DNA of 15,145 nucleotides from a virus (Duplodnaviria > Heunggongvirae > Uroviricota > Caudoviricetes): IMG/VR virus record IMGVR_UViG_2617270941_000006; one strand, written 5' to 3'. Each line of letters opens with the position of its first letter. Position 1 is the stretch's first letter. This document shows, piece after piece, positions 1,397 through 15,145 of this stretch. The translations under genes were made by a program, and so were the position numbers. The notes under the pieces were generated by a model. That model was given only the letters and a program-made list of their open reading frames with translations, did not search any database and had not been told where the DNA came from.

Positions 1397-1446
1397 TTAG
1401 AAACCGATCACATACAGCTGCATTTATTAAGGTTATCATCCGTTTC
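1397..1446 (+). promoter_or_regulatory. Putative cyaR promoter: imperfect CRP half-site pair (TCACA at about 1408-1412, centred near -42) and a -10-like TATCAT at about 1434-1439
   Basis: Sequence ttagaaaccgatcacat upstream of the cyaR 5' end; the TCACA half-site is good and the upstream half is degenerate. CyaR is known to be cAMP-CRP activated with a class II type site. Positions are read by eye. Confidence 0.4.
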
Positions 1447-1533
1447 GCTGAAAAACATAACCCATAAAATGCTAGCTGTACCAGGAACCACCTCCTTAGC
1501 CTGTGTAATCTCCCTTACACGGGCTTATTTTTT
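1447..1533 (+). ncRNA. cyaR: CyaR (RyeE) Hfq-dependent small RNA
   Basis: The stretch gctgaaaaacataacccataaaatgctagctgtaccaggaaccacctccttagcctgtgtaatctcccttacacgggcttatttttt matches my recollection of E. coli CyaR. It ends in a stem-loop (cctgtgtaa / ttacacggg) followed by a U-run, and sits between yegQ and P2-derived genes as in E. coli K-12. Confidence 0.8.
1507..1533. other. P2-type attachment-site core (prophage/host junction), coinciding with the 3' terminator of cyaR
   Basis: aatctcccttacacgggcttatttttt is the reverse complement of the 27-nt P2 att core as I recall it (AAAAAATAAGCCCGTGTAAGGGAGATT). It lies about 100 nt from the ogr stop, the distance expected between ogr and attP in P2. 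The core sequence is from memory and not verified. Confidence 0.55.
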
Positions 1534-1635: not shown

Positions 1636-2043
1636 TTACATCCACATAATTTGCTGCCCTGACGGCAACGGGTGCGGCCTTACGGCGTGGACTTCTCCCG
1701 GCTTCACGATGTATCTCTGTACCGACTCATAGGTGATGAACGTGGCGCTGCAATTCACGTTCTGACACTGGTGATAACGCTCTTTTGTCGTGTCAGTGAT
1801 ATAGCGGCTTGTACGCGCATGTGCGGCATGCTGGCATACCGTGAGTGCACTGGTTTCGGGTTCATATTCAATCACCGCCCCGTCAGGGAAACGGATATGC
1901 AGGGCATCCTCCGACGCAGACGGCGCGGGGTTATCACCGGAATAAATCCCCGGCAGAACGAACGCCGTGTCGAGTTCACCGCCCACGGCCAGAATCAGCA
2001 CCTGCTCCCCCAGCCGGTCTTCAAAACGCTTAAACTCATTCAT
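1636..2043 (-). CDS. ogr: In-frame fusion ORF: N-terminal 69 aa of tail-completion protein S joined to Ogr residues 7-72 (late-gene activator lacking its first 6 residues including Cys4)
   Basis: ORF track 1636..2043 (135 aa). The C-terminal 66 aa (CQHAAHARTSRYITDTTKERYHQCQNVNCSATFITYESVQRYIVKPGEVHAVRPHPLPSGQQIMWM) match P2 Ogr from residue 7 on. The N-terminal MNEFKRFEDRL... starts 2 nt past the R stop, where gene S starts in P2. Junction at about 1836/1837. Confidence 0.7.
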   Translation of the reverse strand: MNEFKRFEDRLGEQVLILAVGGELDTAFVLPGIYSGDNPAPSASEDALHIRFPDGAVIEYEPETSALTVCQHAAHARTSRYITDTTKERYHQCQNVNCSATFITYESVQRYIVKPGEVHAVRPHPLPSGQQIMWM

Positions 2044-3036: not shown

Positions 3037-3449
3037 GGTTCCCGCACCTCAAAACGCTGACGGCAGGCCGTACGTATCAGCCGGAAGAACACCGATACCA
3101 CGAGATAAATCAGCGCGGTAAAAATCCACCCGGCAGCGACCAGCGAGATAAACGTCGCCACCATCACTACCAGAGCCACCGCCCGTCTGCGCCACGGCAC
3201 CGGCTGCAAAAACAGCGACGTGACAATCTTCACGGCCAGCGATTCCGGCGGCAGCTCCCGCCCGTAGCGTTCCAGTACATACTCTGTGGCATACACGCCG
3301 ACACCGCCGGCAACCACACAGATAACCGTCGCCAGAATCGCCCAGGCGGCGACAAAATTGACGGCCACGCTCTGCGGGTAAATCAGGGACAGTGCCAGCA
3401 TCAGCGCCAGCGACACGTTCAGCATCAGTGAAAGGGATAATTTCTTCAT
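3024..3449 (-). CDS. lysA: LysA-like membrane protein (lysis timing / holin-associated), 141 aa
   Basis: Starts at the internal ATG at residue 35 of ORF 3024..3551 (MKKLSLSLMLNVSLALMLALSLIYPQ...). The protein is highly hydrophobic with multiple transmembrane segments, and this start gives the P2 LysA length of 141 aa. The 3551 TTG start is treated as an artefactual extension. Confidence 0.75.
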   Translation of the reverse strand: MKKLSLSLMLNVSLALMLALSLIYPQSVAVNFVAAWAILATVICVVAGGVGVYATEYVLERYGRELPPESLAVKIVTSLFLQPVPWRRRAVALVVMVATFISLVAAGWIFTALIYLVVSVFFRLIRTACRQRFEVREPCQS

Positions 3450-3465
3450 GGTGTTTACTCCGTTT

Positions 3466-3561
3466 TGCGGCGAACACGGTCTCAACCACGCCCTCAGTGC
3501 GCCCGTAATACCGGACACAGATAGCGTCGAGCGTGTCGCCCTGTAGCGCAAAGGTCTTCAT
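3466..3561 (-). pseudogene. X: Truncated gpX (tail protein X) stub: first about 32 codons only, reading through out of frame into lysA
   Basis: ORF 3049..3630 contains MKTFALQGDTLDAICVRYYGRTEGVVETVFAA, matching the N-terminus of P2 gpX, starting at an ATG that overlaps the L stop (tcat at about 3558-3561). After about 32 residues the frame continues into lysA sequence in the wrong frame. The genes expected between X and lysA (Y holin, K endolysin) are absent. Confidence 0.6.
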
Positions 3562-4070
3562 CAGATTTGACTCACGATGCAGCGCGGCTTGTCCTGGATG
3601 CGCGCCACTGCCCAGCGCATATCCCGCCACAGCTCATCAATGGTGCTGTCAATGCTGTCGGCCTTCTTGTCGCCTTTCGCACTGGCATCCACGCCGCGAT
3701 AACGCTCATAAAGCGATGCGGTCGCCATCGCACACACGGCGCGCTCGTAGTAAAAAACTTTGATGCTTTCACCGTCGATGTCGTCCGCCGGGACGTCCGC
3801 CAGACGCGTAAAACCGGCAGCAATTTTCTGTTTGCGGTACTCGTACAGCTCCGCATTCGTCTCCGCCATGCCTGACTTGATGGCCTCACGCAGACGGGCG
3901 GGGGCGACGGTCTGCTCAAGGCGCATACGTTCCCGGACGCGCTTCGGGTCGATATCGGGAAAAAAGAACGTGTTTTTAATCACCGGCTCGTCGCCTGCCG
4001 GTTGCGGGATGACCACCGTACCCTCACCGGACACGGGAGCCTCCTTTCGCGGAATAATCAGCGTCATCAT
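3561..4070 (-). CDS. L: P2 gpL-like head completion/stabilisation protein (169 aa)
   Basis: Starts at Met 21 of ORF 3561..4130 (MMTLIIPRKEAPVSGEGTVVIPQPAGDEPVIKNTFFFPDIDPKRV...), which matches P2 gpL. There is a GAGG Shine-Dalgarno about 5 nt upstream and the length is 169 aa. Confidence 0.85.
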   Translation of the reverse strand: MMTLIIPRKEAPVSGEGTVVIPQPAGDEPVIKNTFFFPDIDPKRVRERMRLEQTVAPARLREAIKSGMAETNAELYEYRKQKIAAGFTRLADVPADDIDGESIKVFYYERAVCAMATASLYERYRGVDASAKGDKKADSIDSTIDELWRDMRWAVARIQDKPRCIVSQI

Positions 4071-7076: not shown

Positions 7077-8849
7077 ATGACCATCACCACAGACACCACT
7101 CTTTTACACGACCCGCGTCGTCAGGCGGCGCTGCTGTACTGGCAGGGATTTTCCGTGCCGCAGATTGCCGCCATGTTGCAGATGAAACGCCCGACGGTGC
7201 AGAGCTGGAAACAGCGCGACGGCTGGGACAGCGTTGCCCCCATCAGCCGTGTCGAAATGAGTCTGGAAGCGAGGCTGACCCAGCTCATCATCAAACCGCA
7301 GAAAACCGGCGGTGACTTCAAGGAAATTGACCTGCTCGGACGCCAGATTGAACGACTGGCACGGGTCAACCGTTACAGTCAGACCGGCAACGAGGCAGAC
7401 CTTAATCCGAACGTCGCTAACCGCAACAAGGGCGGGCGTCGCAAACCGAAAAAGAATTTTTTCAGTGACGAGGCCATCGAAAAGCTGGAGCAGATTTTCT
7501 TTGAGCAGTCTTTCGAATATCAGTTGCACTGGTATCGCGCCGGGCTTGAGCACCGCATCCGCGATATCCTGAAATCCCGCCAGATTGGCGCGACGTTTTA
7601 TTTTTCCCGCGAGGCGCTGCTGCGCGCCCTGAAAACCGGTCATAACCAGATTTTTCTGTCGGCCAGTAAAACGCAGGCGTATGTGTTCCGCGAATACATC
7701 ATCGCCTTTGCCCGGTTGGTTGACGTTGACCTGACCGGTGACCCAATTGTCCTGGGCAATAACGGCGCAAAACTGATTTTTCTCGGCACCAACTCCAACA
7801 CCGCGCAGAGCCATAACGGCGACCTGTACGTCGACGAGATTTTCTGGATCCCGAATTTTCAGGTGCTCCGTAAGGTGGCATCAGGTATGGCCTCACAGAG
7901 CCACCTGCGCTCGACCTATTTCTCCACCCCGTCCACGCTGGCGCACGACGCCTACCCGTTCTGGTCGGGTGAACTGTTCAACCGGGGACGCGCCAGCGCC
8001 GCCGAACGCGTGGAAATCGACGTCAGTCATAACGCCCTTGCCGGAGGTCTTCTCTGTGCGGACGGCCAGTGGCGGCAGATTGTCACCATTGAGGACGCCC
8101 TGAAAGGCGGCTGCACGCTGTTCGACATTGAGCAGCTCAAACGCGAAAACAGCGCCGACGATTTTAAAAACCTGTTCATGTGTGAATTTGTTGACGACAA
8201 GGCATCGGTGTTCCCGTTCGAGGAGCTGCAACGCTGCATGGTCGACACGCTGGAAGAATGGGAAGACTATGCGCCGTTTGCCGCCAATCCGTTCGGCTCC
8301 CGCCCGGTATGGATTGGTTACGACCCGTCACACCGTGGCGACAGCGCCGGATGCGTGGTGCTGGCACCGCCGGTGGTGGCCGGTGGAAAATTCAGAATAC
8401 TTGAGCGTCACCAGTGGAAAGGCATGGACTTTGCCACTCAGGCTGAATCCATCCGCAAACTCACCGAAAAATACAACGTCGAATACATCGGTATTGATGC
8501 CACCGGCCTCGGTGTCGGCGTGTTCCAGCTCGTGCGCTCGTTCTATCCCGCCGCGCGCGATATCCGCTACACACCGGAAATGAAAACTGCAATGGTGCTC
8601 AAGGCAAAAGACGTTATCCGCCGTGGCTGTCTGGAATATGACGTCAGCGCCACCGACATCACCAGCTCGTTCATGGCTATCCGCAAGACCATGACCAGCA
8701 GCGGACGCAGCGCCACGTATGAGGCCAGCCGCAGCGAGGAAGCCAGCCACGCCGACCTCGCCTGGGCGACCATGCATGCCCTGTTAAATGAGCCACTCAC
8801 CGCCGGTATCAGCACCCCGCTGACATCCACCATTCTGGAGTTTTACTGA
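7077..8849 (+). CDS. P: P2 gpP-like terminase large (ATPase) subunit, 590 aa
   Basis: Starts at Met 11 of ORF 7047..8849 (MTITTDTTLLHDPRRQAALLYWQGFSVPQIAAMLQMKRPTVQSWKQRDGWDS...), which matches recalled P2 gpP. The TTG at 7047 is treated as an extension. The stop overlaps the Q start (tgatga). Confidence 0.9.
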   Translation: MTITTDTTLLHDPRRQAALLYWQGFSVPQIAAMLQMKRPTVQSWKQRDGWDSVAPISRVEMSLEARLTQLIIKPQKTGGDFKEIDLLGRQIERLARVNRYSQTGNEADLNPNVANRNKGGRRKPKKNFFSDEAIEKLEQIFFEQSFEYQLHWYRAGLEHRIRDILKSRQIGATFYFSREALLRALKTGHNQIFLSASKTQAYVFREYIIAFARLVDVDLTGDPIVLGNNGAKLIFLGTNSNTAQSHNGDLYVDEIFWIPNFQVLRKVASGMASQSHLRSTYFSTPSTLAHDAYPFWSGELFNRGRASAAERVEIDVSHNALAGGLLCADGQWRQIVTIEDALKGGCTLFDIEQLKRENSADDFKNLFMCEFVDDKASVFPFEELQRCMVDTLEEWEDYAPFAANPFGSRPVWIGYDPSHRGDSAGCVVLAPPVVAGGKFRILERHQWKGMDFATQAESIRKLTEKYNVEYIGIDATGLGVGVFQLVRSFYPAARDIRYTPEMKTAMVLKAKDVIRRGCLEYDVSATDITSSFMAIRKTMTSSGRSATYEASRSEEASHADLAWATMHALLNEPLTAGISTPLTSTILEFY

Positions 8850-9467
8850 TGAGCAAGAAAAAAGGGAAAACACCGCAACCTGCGGCAAAAACAATCACCG
8901 CCAGCGCCCCGAAAATGGAGGCATTCACCTTTGGTGAGCCGGTGCCGGTACGGCCTGCCGGAATATCTCAGCGCCCTTAATTCTGCCTGGCTGAATGAGT
9001 CGGCCACGCTGTTCCGCCGCAAGTATTACGAAAACGGCGCTCATGCCGGATATATCATGTACGTCACCGATGCCGTGCAGGATCGCAACGATATCGAAAT
9101 GCTTCGCGAAAACATGGTCAAGTCGAAAGGCCGCAACAACTTTAAAAATCTGTTTCTCTATGCCCCGCAGGGGAAAGCCGACGGCATTAAAATTATCCCG
9201 CTCAGTGAAGTGGCAACGAAGGACGATTTTTTTAATATCAAAAAAGCCAGCGCCGCTGACCTGCTGGACGCACACCGCATCCCCTTTCAGTTGATGGGCG
9301 GCAAGCCGGAGAACGTCGGGTCACTGGGAGATATTGAGAAAGTGGCAAAGGTCTTTGTCCGCAATGAGCTTATCCCGTTACAGGACAGGATCCGCGAGAT
9401 AAACGGCTGGCTCGGTCAGGAGGTCATCCGCTTTAAAAACTACTCACTGGACACTGACAACGGCTGA
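8849..9467 (+). pseudogene. Q: Portal gene Q disrupted by an internal out-of-frame deletion (N-terminal 34 codons, then C-terminal about 172 codons in another frame)
   Basis: ATG at 8849-8851 overlapping the P stop gives MSKKKGKTPQPAAKTITASAPKMEAFTFGEPVPV, then RPAGISQRP and a stop at 8978-8980. The portal C-terminal sequence (YGLPEYLSALNSAWLNESATLFRRKYYENGAHAGYIMYV...DTDNG) is in ORF 8931..9467 in a different frame. The total span is about 206 codons against 344 aa for P2 Q. Junction near 8948-8951. Confidence 0.8.
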
Positions 9468-9472
9468 ACATC

Positions 9473-9494
9473 GCCGCCTGCGGGCGGCTTTTTT
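9473..9494 (+). terminator. Rho-independent terminator after Q
   Basis: Hairpin gccgcc-tgcg-ggcggc followed by tttttt, beginning 6 nt after the Q stop. Confidence 0.65.
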
Positions 9495-9636
9495 ACACCC
9501 CGTCATCACGCCCTCACACGCTCACCACCGCACAAAACACCCCGCAGACACACCAATGCCCCGGCTAACAATCTAAACGCCATCACGACGCGCTCAGACG
9601 CTGAAAAAATAAAATCAGCACCACCGCCAGCGCGCA

Positions 9637-9655
9637 GTGCTTTCCCCGCCTCGCC
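9637..9655. other. P2-type cos site (19-nt cohesive end sequence)
   Basis: gtgctttccccgcctcgcc is the reverse complement of the P2 cohesive end GGCGAGGCGGGGAAAGCAC as I recall it. It lies about 170 nt beyond the end of Q, as expected for the P2 genome end. Sequence from memory, not verified. Confidence 0.6.
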
Positions 9656-9772: not shown

Positions 9773-10966
9773 TTAAATTCTGCATCCATCGGTTTGAAAA
9801 TGTGATCCGTTTTTCGAATTCAAACTCAACTCTGTTTGACTCTTTTGAACATTAATAGTTTTACCAGTAAGGACATCCAAAACCCCTGCAGCAACAGCCT
9901 GCGCCAATTTACAAGGCACAGCATTCCCTATCTGACGCCAAATTGACGAATTTTTCCCCACAAAGACATAATTACTCGGGAATGTTTGAATCAAAAGAGC
10001 CTCATCTATCGTTAGTCGACGTAAACGACTAGGTACATCGTGCATATCTTTTGGCTCACCACCATTCATTAGATGATTATGATAAGTCTCAACATAACTT
10101 GTTGAGCCATCATAAAGGTGTTCTTCATCAATAATTGGTGTCCTATTCCCTCCCATAGAAGCAGCTATAGTTGAAGCATACCCATTCGGGTTAATTGGTC
10201 TTCCCTGCCCGTTAAACATCATTCCCGCGTAAGGTGACTTCCGTAATACTGGCTTAGCAGCATTTGTAATCCTTGCATTACAGACTCTTGAATTGTTTGG
10301 ATTACCCGCTCGCCCTAAAGGCCGAATAATCTCACCAACTGTGGGCGAAAGATATTGGTATTTTTTTATCGCCGCCTCAACTCGTTTCACATCATTTTCG
10401 GAACGAAACCCTATAAAAAACATACGTTCCCTATTCTGAGGAACGCCAAAATCTTTAGAATTCAGCACCAGCAAGGCTGAACGATAGCCTGACTTTTCAG
10501 CCATCTTAAACAGTTCACACCTAACTGGTTCAAATTTGGACAACTGTGCTAAAGCCTTAACATTCTCCATAACAAAGCATTCTGGTTGAATTATATCCAC
10601 CGCCCGCATGAATGACATAACCAGCTTACTACGTGGATCATGAGCGTCCATTTTCCCTGCCACAGAAAATCCTTGGCATGGAGGCCCACCAAAAACACAA
10701 CCTATATTTTTCAGCCCAGACAATTCACTTAGCATCTCATCAATATCACCACAAAAAACAGGTGATTCATGATTAAGCTTAAATGTATCACATGCATCCT
10801 TATCTATATCATTGGCCCAAACTGTTCGGAACCCGGCATTAGAGAAACCGACATCCATCCCTCCTGCCCCAGTAAATAAGCTCACCGCTGAAATTTTGTT
10901 CACTTCTTTAGCACCAATTATTCGATTTTGGAATAAAACCAATGATAGGTAAGGATCGACACACAA
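9773..10966 (-). CDS. DNA (cytosine-5)-methyltransferase, Type II R-M modification subunit (397 aa with the TTG start)
   Basis: ORF track 9773..10966. Conserved m5C-MTase motifs in canonical order: LFTGAGGMDVGF (motif I, AdoMet binding), GGPPCQGFS (motif IV, catalytic Cys), ENV (motif VI), QNRERMFFIG (motif VIII), a variable target-recognition region, and RQIGNAVP (motif X). The TTG start has an AAGGTGA Shine-Dalgarno 4 nt upstream; GTG starts 21 or 27 codons in are alternatives. The region is AT-rich compared with the phage backbone. Confidence 0.85.
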   Translation of the reverse strand: MCVDPYLSLVLFQNRIIGAKEVNKISAVSLFTGAGGMDVGFSNAGFRTVWANDIDKDACDTFKLNHESPVFCGDIDEMLSELSGLKNIGCVFGGPPCQGFSVAGKMDAHDPRSKLVMSFMRAVDIIQPECFVMENVKALAQLSKFEPVRCELFKMAEKSGYRSALLVLNSKDFGVPQNRERMFFIGFRSENDVKRVEAAIKKYQYLSPTVGEIIRPLGRAGNPNNSRVCNARITNAAKPVLRKSPYAGMMFNGQGRPINPNGYASTIAASMGGNRTPIIDEEHLYDGSTSYVETYHNHLMNGGEPKDMHDVPSRLRRLTIDEALLIQTFPSNYVFVGKNSSIWRQIGNAVPCKLAQAVAAGVLDVLTGKTINVQKSQTELSLNSKNGSHFQTDGCRI

Positions 10967-10986
10967 TCAATCACCTTCTAAACCAC

Positions 10987-11256
10987 ATGGCAAAACGACA
11001 ACCAACTATACATGATCATAGATACAGGTGCCTAGTCCAGCTTCTCACCAAACTACGCAAAGAAGCTTCTCTTTCGCAGTCAGAATTGGCCATTTTTCTA
11101 GGATTATCACAATCAGATATATCTAAAATCGAAAGCTTTGAAAGGCGATTAGATGCTTTAGAACTATTTGAATTATTAGAGGTGGTTGCAAGCCGATTAG
11201 GTCTACCAATGGATATCTTACTAAAGGACACCTATGAAAGTATTAGTAAATCATGA
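10987..11256 (+). CDS. XRE-family helix-turn-helix regulator, putative R-M controller (C) protein, 89 aa (104 aa if it starts at the ATG at 10942)
   Basis: Internal Met 16 of ORF 10942..11256. HTH segment LRKEASLSQSELAIFLGLSQSDISKIESFERRLDALELFELLEVVASRLGLPMD follows the pattern of R-M controller proteins. It is divergent from the methyltransferase and its 3' end overlaps the start of the downstream ORF by 23 nt (C-R operon architecture). Start codon choice is uncertain. Confidence 0.65.
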   Translation: MAKRQPTIHDHRYRCLVQLLTKLRKEASLSQSELAIFLGLSQSDISKIESFERRLDALELFELLEVVASRLGLPMDILLKDTYESISKS

Positions 11257-12289
11257 GCAAGCCTATAATGTAATTATAAATGCAATCAACGATGCAAAAA
11301 AATTAACTGATTACAAAACAAATAATCAATGGGTCTCCATTCAAAATGTAATTTTAGGCACCCACCTTACATACAGATATATACTTATTACTGGTTTACT
11401 TGCAAAAGCAACAGACCCTAGAGTAAACCCTCTTGCTTTACAAGCTAATGCCCCCGTAGACGGAGCCTATGATGCAAGAAGTTTATGTCATTCGGTAATA
11501 GTAGGCAAAGTAGAAGGCCCATTTTTAGAGGGTAAGTTAGGCGCATCAAATGAGCCATTTCTAAATAAACCTGCTCGTTACATGCTCCACTCCTCTGATA
11601 ACCCTGTGCGCAGAGGAAATGATAAGGTTTTACAACAACTTTCAATTGATATATTACATGCAGCAACAACCCAAACCTTAGCTTATGAAATGCTTGTTAT
11701 TGCATTATATTTTACCCTACAGCGAACCAATAGAGTTATAACGCCGAACTCAATTAATTTTGATTTCCATAAGATTATTTATAATATTATATCTCATCCT
11801 TGTGATGGAGAAACATGCGCGATTGCTGCCGCAATTTCGTTACATTTATTAGGTGAACAAAGAGGATGGATAATAAAAGCACATCCCGTCAATCAGGCCG
11901 GTAGCTCCTCAAAAGAGATACTGGACATAGATGTATATCATGACGATATAGTTTTCCTTTCTATAGAAGTGAAAGACAAACCATTTAATTATCAAGATGT
12001 TAATCACGCCGTTTCAAAAGCATCTGCATCCGGGATTTCAAAAGTTATCTTCCTTAAAGGGCCAAGAGCAACAAACTTAGATATTGATGAGTCTCTTGCG
12101 ATTGAGAACGCTGCGACAAAAGGTGTTTCACTAAGCTTTAGTGACGTCATGACATTCACAACAACATGTTATGCGTTATCGCCACTATTAAGTAATGACA
12201 GAATAATAGATTTCATAAATAACACTTTAAAAGACATCAGAGCTAAAGATAGCACTATAGAATACATACAATCCATATTTAAAAATTAA
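11234..12289 (+). CDS. Putative Type II restriction endonuclease (351 aa), family unassigned
   Basis: ORF track 11234..12289. ATG preceded by AAAGGA Shine-Dalgarno at 11223-11228, translationally coupled to the HTH gene. Candidate PD-(D/E)xK-like motif around residues 231-247 (LDIDVYHDDIVFLSIEVK, about nt 11924-11974). Function is inferred from genomic context with the m5C-MTase and controller; the ORF itself is solid, the product call is tentative. Confidence 0.55.
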   Translation: MKVLVNHEQAYNVIINAINDAKKLTDYKTNNQWVSIQNVILGTHLTYRYILITGLLAKATDPRVNPLALQANAPVDGAYDARSLCHSVIVGKVEGPFLEGKLGASNEPFLNKPARYMLHSSDNPVRRGNDKVLQQLSIDILHAATTQTLAYEMLVIALYFTLQRTNRVITPNSINFDFHKIIYNIISHPCDGETCAIAAAISLHLLGEQRGWIIKAHPVNQAGSSSKEILDIDVYHDDIVFLSIEVKDKPFNYQDVNHAVSKASASGISKVIFLKGPRATNLDIDESLAIENAATKGVSLSFSDVMTFTTTCYALSPLLSNDRIIDFINNTLKDIRAKDSTIEYIQSIFKN

Positions 12290-12382: not shown

Positions 12383-14653
12383 TCATAATTCATACGCTCT
12401 CCAATCACATATAACAGGATAACTGAAGCTTCTCCCGTCGTAATTTACAGTTGCCCCACGCGCCAGCGCCTCAAGCTCCCATCGCTGCGGCCTGATACCG
12501 TTCTGAGCAAGGTCAACGCGGATACGGGTGATTTGCAATCGTTCAGACCTGGTCAGTCTGGCCGATGGTGCTATTTCATGCGGTTTTAACGGGCTTCCGT
12601 TTCTTTGCTGACGGTTTGGTGTTATCAGGTCGTGTTTTAATGCGCCCCTGAGCGCCCTCACGACCTCCGGGTCATTCCATTCGATAACACCGTCATCAAC
12701 CAGATTAAGCACTGCTGCGGCGTGTTCAGAAGGTGTGGGAGCCGGTAACGAAGTATCACCACTGGTGAGCTTTCCACAGTTATTGACAGGACTCCGAGGC
12801 GCGGCGATGCCGCTTTTTAAAGTCAAAGGCTCAACGACCGGAACTTTCGGCACAATGCGCCAGTCCGTCGTTCTGGTGATATGAATATGACGCGCGCCGA
12901 GATGCGGCGCGTAAATGCCGACCACTCTCTCGACTTCTTCCTCGTACTCGTTAACGTCATCCGACGGGCTACGGGCGACCCTGACAGTCTGACAATCGCG
13001 CGGGACATTTGCCCCGCCCTGCGCGCTGATATACAACGCAAAATCACCACTGTCTGCGGCGGCGCGTGCAGCCTCGACGCGTTCGTCAAACTCATCAGCA
13101 ATGCTGACGCCGCGAGGCAATTTGCGTAGCTCACGGTAAGCCCCCATTGTCGGCAGGCCAACCGTTTTAAATTGCGGAATGCGCCACGTTGACGCCCATG
13201 CGGTAACAGCCGCGGCAGTATCTTTCAGCGGCCTGCCAGTATCGTTATCGAGCTGACCATCCAGTGCATAGCCGTCGATGTTTTTTGAAATGTATTTCGC
13301 GATATATCCCGCAGCACCGCCCCGGTTAAGGTGTTTTGCCTGAAAACGGTTTCGCGCAGCTCCTCTTTCGTCTCCATCCTCTTTGAGCGCGTAGCGACGC
13401 ATGATTTCGATAATCTGGTTACGCTGGCGTGGATTACAAAAAAGCATCATATGCCAGTGCGGCGTTCCGTCGTGGTGTGGCTCGACGACACGCAAACCGT
13501 AGACCTGTAAATCATTATCCTTGAATGCCGTGCGCATCAGGCTCCAGATATGGCAGAGATAACGCTGCGCATCCTTTGGATTAAATGCCTCATCATTCCA
13601 GCCGTGATTTAGCTGGACGGTTTTACTTTCGCCTTTTCCGACCTGACGTGTCGGGTGATACTTTGACGGCGCGGTCAGCGTGATAAACATCCCCACATCA
13701 CCCTCTGCGGCGGCATAACGCTCAATTCCGGCGATGGTGTTCATCAGCTCCATCCGGCGAATTTCAGGATTAGAAATACTGCCCATCACCTTACTGATAA
13801 GGTCGATGCGCTCGCCGGTTTCCCTGTTTTCAAGGTCACACGATTTAAGAAATTCCAGATTTGCCTGGCGGCGTGCACGCACATCACGAATGGCATGTTT
13901 ACTGGCATAAGGAGAACGGTCTTTATTGACCTCCCCGACAGCAATCAGTAACGCCTCATGCCAGCGCATACGCTGGCCTTTAAGCTGATGAGTCCACCAC
14001 TCATCGTTAAACAGACGGGCAATGGCAGAATATGCCTGCCTCGTAGTTATCTGTCCTTTACGGTATTTTTTCCAGTAGAGCGGGGAAATATTGAAAGCAC
14101 GTGCAGCGCCAGCAACATGACCATACAGGTGAGTCTGCGCCTCATCCGTAAACAGCGATTCTTTTTCGCCATGTGCATCAACCCATGCATCGCAGAGTTC
14201 CTCATACATCATGAAAAGCTGCGATGAGATACGGGCGGCAAACTTTTTCAGCTCCTTGTCATTCATCCCCGGCAGGCGCGCATAGTGGTCACGCTCTGCC
14301 AGAAACAGTAACGACTCGTCGGTGTTCATTTCATGGCGCTGATTCACGCGCTCAATGCGCGGCCATAAACGACGCTGAAAAGTGGATGTGAGGAAATAAA
14401 ACCCGTGCACCGGGCTTTTATTGCGCCGGATGTAGTCATAGCGTGAAGTAAACAGCGAGCGCAAAAAGTAAGGCAGGCGGTTAATCGTGGATAAAACACC
14501 TTGCACCTGACGCATCTCGTCACGTGTAAGGGGTCTTTCGCGCCCGACAGCCTCGCGTGGCGCGTTCCATGCATAAGCACCGGTAAACGCCTTACCGGTG
14601 CCTGCGGCAAATGCTGACGGAGGGACAAAACGCCCGGAGGCTTTAACGGCCAT
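12383..14653 (-). CDS. A: P2 gpA-like rolling-circle replication initiator (HUH endonuclease), 756 aa
   Basis: Starts at Met 15 of ORF 12383..14695 (MAVKASGRFVPPSAFAAGTGK...), the P2 gpA N-terminus as I recall it. HUH metal-binding motif (GTPHWHMMLF) and active-site tyrosine motif (GYIAKYISKN). The upstream gene stops at 14643, consistent with this start. The extreme C-terminus is AT-rich and may be chimeric. Confidence 0.9.
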   Translation of the reverse strand: MAVKASGRFVPPSAFAAGTGKAFTGAYAWNAPREAVGRERPLTRDEMRQVQGVLSTINRLPYFLRSLFTSRYDYIRRNKSPVHGFYFLTSTFQRRLWPRIERVNQRHEMNTDESLLFLAERDHYARLPGMNDKELKKFAARISSQLFMMYEELCDAWVDAHGEKESLFTDEAQTHLYGHVAGAARAFNISPLYWKKYRKGQITTRQAYSAIARLFNDEWWTHQLKGQRMRWHEALLIAVGEVNKDRSPYASKHAIRDVRARRQANLEFLKSCDLENRETGERIDLISKVMGSISNPEIRRMELMNTIAGIERYAAAEGDVGMFITLTAPSKYHPTRQVGKGESKTVQLNHGWNDEAFNPKDAQRYLCHIWSLMRTAFKDNDLQVYGLRVVEPHHDGTPHWHMMLFCNPRQRNQIIEIMRRYALKEDGDERGAARNRFQAKHLNRGGAAGYIAKYISKNIDGYALDGQLDNDTGRPLKDTAAAVTAWASTWRIPQFKTVGLPTMGAYRELRKLPRGVSIADEFDERVEAARAAADSGDFALYISAQGGANVPRDCQTVRVARSPSDDVNEYEEEVERVVGIYAPHLGARHIHITRTTDWRIVPKVPVVEPLTLKSGIAAPRSPVNNCGKLTSGDTSLPAPTPSEHAAAVLNLVDDGVIEWNDPEVVRALRGALKHDLITPNRQQRNGSPLKPHEIAPSARLTRSERLQITRIRVDLAQNGIRPQRWELEALARGATVNYDGRSFSYPVICDWRAYEL

Positions 14654-14918
14654 ATGAGCCAAAAGCCTCTGAACAACGCTTGCTGAGTTGCTCAACCTGC
14701 GCGTTTAAATCAGCAAAAGACTTTGCGCTTCCGGTCAGAATATCGTGATGCATCAGGCCGGAAACGAGCTGGCTTAATTTCGGGTAATAACCAACCACCG
14801 CCAGCCATTCCTGACCGGCGTTTTTACCGCTTTCCGCTCTCTTTTTCTCGTGGAGAATAAACTGAAAGCTGTCACTGGTAACGACATAACGTTCGCCAAT
14901 TTCGATACGAATACTCAT
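14643..14918 (-). CDS. P2 early-operon small protein immediately upstream of A (orf83-position homologue), 91 aa, function unknown
   Basis: ORF track 14643..14918. The ATG overlaps the stop of the upstream zinc-finger ORF (tcat at 14915-14918). It sits where the P2 early operon has small ORFs between B and A. The name is by position only. Confidence 0.55.
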   Translation of the reverse strand: MSIRIEIGERYVVTSDSFQFILHEKKRAESGKNAGQEWLAVVGYYPKLSQLVSGLMHHDILTGSAKSFADLNAQVEQLSKRCSEAFGSYGR

Positions 14919-15139
14919 GCCATTCTCCGGTAATGTTTGTTTTTTGCTTCAAAGACTGACTGACAGGAAACACAACGCGTGGCTGACGGATAAGCCGCAC
15001 GACGGGCAGCAGGTATTGGCGCGTCACACTCTTCGCAAACCAGCGCAGAAGCACCGCAATGTTTTACCCTTGCCGCGTTAATCTGGCGCTCCAGTAATTC
15101 AGCCTGTTGTTCCTGAATAAAATCTACGTTGTCCGGCAT
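14915..15139 (-). CDS. TraR/DksA-family C4 zinc-finger protein (P2 early-operon small ORF, orf82-like), 74 aa
   Basis: ORF track 14915..15139 with ATG at 15137-15139. Four cysteines in two CxxC pairs (HCGASALVCEECDAPIPAARRAAYPSATRCVSCQ), typical of phage TraR/DksA-like zinc fingers. Confidence 0.65.
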   Translation of the reverse strand: MPDNVDFIQEQQAELLERQINAARVKHCGASALVCEECDAPIPAARRAAYPSATRCVSCQSVFEAKNKHYRRMA

Positions 15140-15145
15140 TACCAG

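Follow-up and report, generated by a model that had tools for sequence, protein, structure and literature searches.

In a P2-like prophage of Escherichia coli, the portal gene Q appears to have recently become a pseudogene through a single internal deletion of 416 bp, and we put the probability of this reading at about 0.9. The gene lies in a 15,145-nucleotide stretch of DNA (hereafter the window) which carries four deletion junctions in all. We interpret the Q lesion as ordinary decay of such a prophage by deletion at short homology.

Anatomy of the portal gene lesion

Immediately upstream of Q lies the gene for the large terminase, P (positions 7077-8849, plus strand; 590 aa), which is intact, being free of internal stops and collinear with the P coding sequence of the E. 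coli prophage L003. The two translations are identical at 590 of 591 positions (stop counted), and the codon differences between the window P and its relatives comprise 27-34 synonymous changes and 1 nonsynonymous change. The TGA stop codon of P (8847-8849) overlaps the ATG start codon of Q (8849-8851) by one base, giving TGATG at 8847-8851, an overlap which the initial annotation of this DNA had described, and the P and Q coding sequences of annotated intact relatives likewise have one coordinate in common. Q thus has the position expected of a portal gene, with its start overlapping the P stop and cos lying downstream. This placement between P and cos establishes that the gene descends from the one encoding gpQ, not that it functions.

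Rather than the single uninterrupted reading frame of ~344 codons that encodes a P2-type portal, the window holds two overlapping pieces. Translation of the 5' remnant (8849-8980, plus strand; 43 codons) yields 34 native residues, MSKKKGKTPQPAAKTITASAPKMEAFTFGEPVPV, of which 32-33 match intact Q, followed by the out-of-frame residues RPAGISQRP and a TAA stop codon at 8978-8980. The 3' remnant (8949-9467, plus strand) encodes residues 173-344 and the stop codon, its frame being +1 with respect to the Q start, and is contained in an open reading frame at 8931-9467 which begins with TTG and specifies six unrelated residues before YGLPEYLS...DTDNG, and which overlaps the 5' open reading frame by 50 nt (8931-8980). 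The initial annotation had reported both features, namely the 34 portal-like residues running into RPAGISQRP and a stop, and the C-terminal part of the portal in another frame within 8931-9467, and our translations bear it out on each.

From start to stop, Q measures 619 nt in the window versus 1035 nt in an intact copy, a true difference rather than a product of chance. Relative to every intact P2-type Q examined, the missing 416 bp correspond to nucleotides 104-519 of the gene, or residues 35-172 (138 residues), which turns the earlier estimate of about 140 missing codons into an exact figure of 138 codons plus 2 nt. Since 416 equals 3 × 138 + 2, the downstream part of Q is read in the +1 frame and the gene is split in two. 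The initial annotation had called for an alignment to intact Q, and this alignment confirms that the deletion is internal and shifts the frame.

We searched positions 8600-9600 of the window (1001 bases) by megablast against 50,697 phage records. A total of 83 P2-like records matched, 71 of which cover at least 80% of the query, and the best match aligns in two pieces at ~98% identity, with the 1001 bases of the query spread over 1417 bases of the record. Local BLAST against phages S164 and fiAA91-ss resolved the same two pieces, with query bases 1-352 matching subject bases 1-352 and query bases 349-1001 matching subject bases 765-1417. The pieces overlap by 4 nt, query 349-352, which is window 8948-8951 and agrees with the earlier placement of the junction near these positions. 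In a three-way alignment this overlap is a 4-bp microhomology, GTAC, without filler bases: intact Q has this tetranucleotide on either side of the missing segment, and the window has it a single time. With a short sequence common to both flanks and no inserted bases, the junction has the form of a microhomology-associated deletion. When deletion endpoints were drawn at random in the Q sequence by simulation, a microhomology of at least 4 bp arose with a probability of 0.02, in keeping with a biological deletion at short homology. The simplest account would be that one 416-bp deletion joined two GTAC tetranucleotides within Q, and the anatomy of the junction points to illegitimate recombination at short homology, either by replication slippage or by microhomology-mediated end joining.

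A P2-like prophage with four deletion junctions

Judged from gene order and sequence identity, the element that harbors Q is a P2-like (Peduovirus) prophage integrated in the E. coli chromosome beside cyaR and yegQ. The window opens with yegQ (1-1362), followed by the gene for the small RNA CyaR (1445-1530; Rfam, 100.7 bits), and P2-like sequence begins at about position 1547, so that yegQ and CyaR flank the ogr-proximal end of the prophage. From there the prophage is collinear with fiAA91-ss and with E. coli prophages at 96-98% identity, interrupted by four deletion junctions. Its chromosomal location, its gene order, which is that of P2, and its high sequence identity with Peduovirus genomes, together with the loss of genes essential for virion production, are those of a defective P2-like prophage. 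Absent altogether are W, J, I, H, G, FI, FII, E, T, U, D and Y; of K only the last 2 nt are left, and V, S, X, Q and ogr are all truncated. By comparison with an intact prophage, R, lysC, lysB, lysA, L, M, N, O, P and A are full-length and free of internal stops, as are the genes for a cytosine methyltransferase, a small helix-turn-helix (HTH) protein and a SacI-family endonuclease and two small early genes, all with amino-acid identities of 94-100%. The restriction-modification cargo and the replication genes thus persist intact in the remnant, and the capsid and terminase genes are, as the initial annotation had stated, full-length. Directly 3' of the Q stop codon is a terminator-like GC hairpin followed by a run of T (9473-9488, plus strand), and the 19-nt cos cohesive-end sequence (9637-9655), which reads GGCGAGGCGGGGAAAGCAC on the minus strand, is an exact match to the annotated cosL of fiAA91-ss.

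The largest of the deletions, with its junction at 1837-1838 and a microhomology of ~2 bp, amounts to ~12.6 kb on the scale of fiAA91-ss and has removed the first 5 codons of ogr, D, U, T, E, FII and FI, the cargo of the Z/fun region, G, H, I, J and W, and the 3' part of V. A second deletion, of 675 bp with a 2-bp microhomology (CA) at 2011-2012, took the 5' part of V and spared only the first 11 codons of S, leaving an island of 174 bp of V between the two junctions. As a product of these two deletions, the minus strand carries a chimeric in-frame open reading frame (1636-2043) of 135 aa which, as its translation and BLASTP comparison with S, V and Ogr show, joins residues 1-11 of S, 63-121 of V and 6-72 of Ogr. 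A Pfam Ogr_Delta match is recorded for this gene as called, and the chimera lacks Cys4, which is the first of the four zinc-binding cysteines of Ogr. The third deletion, of 888 bp with a 2-bp microhomology (TT) at 3464-3465, removed Y completely, K save for its final 2 nt, and the 3' half of X. The Q deletion (8948-8951; 416 bp, 4-bp microhomology, Q nucleotides 104-519) is the fourth. All four junctions are clean, with 2-4 bp of microhomology; the 2-bp junctions fit random endpoints (p = 0.16), and the 4-bp junction in Q is the only one that would by itself rarely arise by chance (p = 0.02). The initial annotation had counted at least three inactivating deletions, and its picture of multiple deletion stands, with the number of junctions refined to four. 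What it had read as one deletion between S and ogr is a real gap produced by two events on either side of the V island, and the loss it described across Y and K is real as well and extends further, into X.

Could the Q junction be a product of sequencing or assembly, with the true gene intact and the 416-bp gap made by the assembler? The window comes from a short-read draft contig, being identical to positions 90186-105330 of JNQL01000014.1 (GCA_000704125.1), and both JNQK01000014.1 (GCA_000703965.1) and JNQM01000015.1 (GCA_000704285.1) contain this sequence with its junction at 100% identity. All three contigs stop within the early region of the prophage, at approximately window positions 14618-15145, and this common end may reflect a repeat at that point, perhaps a second P2-like element in the same genome. 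Three genomes, each assembled separately, yielded the identical junction, which argues against an artefact; however, the accessions are consecutive and the assemblies match one another at 100% over at least 13 kb, so that a single clone and a single pipeline are probably behind them and they count as weak independent replicates. In intact Q, the longest direct repeat is at most 10 nt and only 4 nt are common to the two breakpoints. With no direct repeat exceeding 10 nt, collapse of k-mers or overlaps by an assembler is excluded as the source of the junction. Further, the three other clean deletions show that the prophage is truly degraded. Given these data, an assembly error in the Q region is unlikely, and we would assign it only a few chances in a hundred.

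Consequences for portal function and virion production

The P2 portal is a dodecamer of gpQ at the unique vertex of the capsid, in which residues 27-340 have been modelled in the virion as wing, stem and clip, and residues 240-243 of the clip bind gpL (bioRxiv 10.64898/2026.09.14.750843; PMC7552001). A search of solved structures by sequence with intact Q returned no match. In Pfam, the C-terminal piece of the window Q scores 29.4 bits against Phage_portal (PF04860), which is below the gathering cut-off of 39.1, whereas intact Q scores 53.3; the N-terminal stub has no match to this family. The loss of residues 35-172 together with the frameshift means that no portal protein can be made from Q, only a stub of 43 aa. 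At best, the C-terminal piece of 172 residues could be made as well, without the first 40% of the protein. The TTG codon at 8931 is preceded, at a distance of 11 nt, by a GGAGG motif, and some translation of the C-terminal fragment from this codon is possible.

From what is established for P2, without a portal dodecamer DNA would not be packaged into the procapsid and tails would not be joined. The prophage has in any case lost all its tail genes, the holin gene Y, nearly all of the endolysin gene K and most of S, with the lysis-accessory genes lysA, lysB and lysC being kept. Ogr persists only as a chimera lacking Cys4, so the late operons are probably silent in the absence of a helper. The Q lesion therefore probably adds no further phenotype, and it may best be viewed as one step, presumably neutral, in the decay of an element that was already dead.

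Age, distribution and relationship to other remnants

The Q junction seems to be confined to one lineage. When 5426 complete E. coli genomes were searched with a 61-mer spanning it, none matched, and a 25-mer had no exact match in collections of genome, metagenome and viral contigs. Searches for exact copies of the 43-aa stub and the 135-aa chimera returned three NCBI contigs in each case, which belong to the same three clonal assemblies, and no intermediate forms of the deleted prophage were found in the collections searched. The occurrence of the junction in three identical assemblies only indicates that the lesion is private to one lineage. It also appears to be young. The C-terminal remnant is identical to intact L003 Q at 172 of 172 residues, and relative to two intact relatives the 3' remnant has 9-11 synonymous and 0 nonsynonymous codon differences. 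Because the divergence of the 3' remnant of Q is entirely synonymous, and that of P nearly so, it must have arisen under purifying selection, before the gene was broken, and a C-terminal piece with synonymous differences only points to a deletion that is evolutionarily recent. The retained genes would then look perfect because there has been too little time for point mutations to build up.

A rival reading is that the remnant is under selection for a function of its own, and two versions of such a role can be imagined. In one, the C-terminal fragment would be expressed from the Ogr-dependent P promoter upon infection by a P2-like phage and would spoil the portal rings of the superinfecting phage; in the other, the remnant of ~17 kb, with its cos, terminase, capsid and replication genes, would be packaged by a co-resident P2-like helper. 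Several features are in keeping with these ideas. The cos site is intact, as are P, M, N, O, L and A, the C-terminal fragment retains the clip region and the subunit-contact strand, with residues 240-243, the TTG at 8931 is preceded by the Shine-Dalgarno-like GGAGG, and the restriction-modification cargo could stabilize the element. However, outside three identical assemblies the junction had no match in the collections searched, with no sign of spread or long-term retention, the absence of nonsynonymous change is equally explained by recency, satellite-type genes (sid, psu, delta) were not seen among the called genes, and the deletion patterns of other strains differ and are apparently haphazard. 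We thus regard a selected remnant of either type as very improbable, and the specific proposal that the 172-residue fragment or the ~17-kb remnant is induced by the Ogr of an incoming phage, and then poisons the portal or is packaged, as slightly more improbable still. If true, poisoning by the fragment would amount to a prophage-encoded exclusion system and packaging would make the element a helper-dependent hitcher. We also considered whether the element is a P4-like phage satellite and rejected this, as it has the gene content of P2, keeps the capsid genes N and O and has no satellite-type families among its called genes; an intact cos is the only feature that the remnant and satellite-type elements have in common.

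Least probable of all, and in our view to be rejected, is that Q is a naturally split portal gene whose two pieces are read as one by a programmed +1 ribosomal frameshift within 8931-8980, since, although the open reading frames do overlap by 50 nt with the second in the +1 frame, the Q of intact relatives occupies a single frame, the 416-bp loss fully accounts for the change of frame, even a shifted product would lack 138 residues and leave the Pfam score under threshold, and the two-frame arrangement is conserved nowhere in the collections searched.

Intact gpQ of P2 and other Peduovirus phages, as represented by fiAA91-ss Q (YP_008766919.1) and an E. coli prophage protein (WP_000038161.1), shares ~98% nucleotide identity with the window in both pieces, lies in the same position, overlapping the P stop with a terminator and cos downstream, and is collinear over residues 1-34 and 173-344. 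The window Q differs in lacking residues 35-172 and in its broken frame, which make it a pseudogene. The ogrK/D' remnant of K-12 is likewise a defective P2-like element at yegQ-cyaR, and the decayed prophages of FORC_082 and CP66-6 share the integration locus of the window prophage. E. coli commonly harbors decayed P2-like prophages in which several deletions have fused genes, and those of FORC_082, CP66-6_Sichuan and KFu022 have the same gene order and several gene-fusing internal deletions, as here. The FORC_082 prophage also carries the same cargo, a methyltransferase/HTH/SacI-family restriction-modification system, but it adjoins yegR with int proximal whereas the window prophage adjoins yegQ with ogr proximal, its portal is frameshifted, and its deletions are different, having fused M to O with the loss of N and the sheath gene to I. 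In CP66-6_Sichuan, D is fused to H and A is truncated, and KFu022 has lost everything between U and R. None of the three has the breakpoints of the window; their decay was independent. In the window prophage, every lesion is a deletion and the retained genes have no inactivating point mutation or frameshift. A P2-type Q is present in 1649 complete E. coli genomes, and its best copy covers at least 80% of the gene in 1602 of them and less than 80% in 47 (~3%).

The decay of pseudogenes and prophages in bacteria is marked by a deletional bias, in which deletions form at short direct repeats by slippage or by microhomology-mediated illegitimate recombination. Nothing distinguishes the present case from deletion formation of this type: the junctions are clean, share 2-4 bp, contain no filler and bound losses from 0.4 to 12.6 kb. 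The initial reading of Q as a gene with an internal frameshifting deletion within a multiply deleted prophage is thus supported by both alignment and junction mapping. Events of this kind are known, the phage family is well studied, and nothing new is shown here; the case agrees with the accepted view of deletional bias and of cargo that outlasts its phage, and adds nothing to that view. For annotation, Q should carry a pseudogene label, and the element should be listed as a defective P2-like prophage for which, to judge from its gene content, virion production would not be possible. The locus offers a tidy example of a prophage decaying purely via short-homology deletions, ahead of decay by point mutation.

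Genes at the prophage boundary

The ogr-proximal end of the prophage lies close to a small RNA gene, CyaR/RyeE (1445-1530, plus strand; Rfam RF00112, 100.7 bits), which is flanked by this prophage end and by yegQ, with P2-like sequence beginning about 17 nt past the sRNA gene. This strain has a ParD/ParE toxin-antitoxin pair between yegP and yegQ, located upstream of the window on one of the draft contigs carrying the prophage (L005, 456-1050), and CP66-6_Sichuan likewise has a ParD/ParE pair between these two genes.

Reading frames across the deletion junctions

The two deletions joining ogr to V (J1) and V to S (J2) both preserved the reading frame, and their combined product is a chimeric ORF of 135 aa (1636-2043, minus strand) composed of S residues 1-11, V residues 63-121 and Ogr residues 6-72. 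The zinc-finger activator Ogr is mostly kept in this chimera, with Cys4 absent, and the ORF is now located at the end of the O operon, immediately after R. Two in-frame fusions are expected by chance at about 1/9, so the S-V-Ogr chimera is unremarkable in itself.

At the K-Y-X deletion, codons 1-32 of X were also seen to continue past the junction, in an alternative frame across lysA. The long mechanical ORF that results (3049-3630, minus strand; 193 aa from an upstream GTG) was not called by the gene callers, and the GC-rich sequence has probably left this frame open by chance.

Restriction-modification cargo and the FORC_082 sister prophage

Between cos and gene A, where P2-like phages have their variable 'old/tin' hotspot, the prophage carries a restriction-modification cargo of three genes (9773-12289), all intact: a C5-cytosine methyltransferase (9773-10966, minus strand), a small HTH controller-like protein (10987-11256, plus strand) and a SacI-family endonuclease (11234-12289, plus strand). 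In the window the methyltransferase reading frame extends to 397 aa, against 384 aa as annotated in strain NCTC10973, because a sense codon occupies the position at which the NCTC10973 gene has its stop.

The same cargo is found in a sister prophage of E. coli FORC_082 (L007, NZ_CP026641.1, 1-20376), whose integrase side adjoins yegR. The FORC_082 prophage has decayed independently, with a frameshifted portal, a sheath-I fusion, a split methyltransferase and the loss of N through an M-O fusion. The FORC_082 prophage would be of use in comparing decay routes of one prophage type.

Clustered contig ends in the early region

All three draft contigs carrying the prophage end within about 530 bp of one another (14618-15145), in the early region near a TraR/DksA-like gene. 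This clustering suggests a repeat at these positions, which may belong to a second P2-like element of this genome or to an IS within it. If a second such element is present, an intact portal could be supplied from it in trans.
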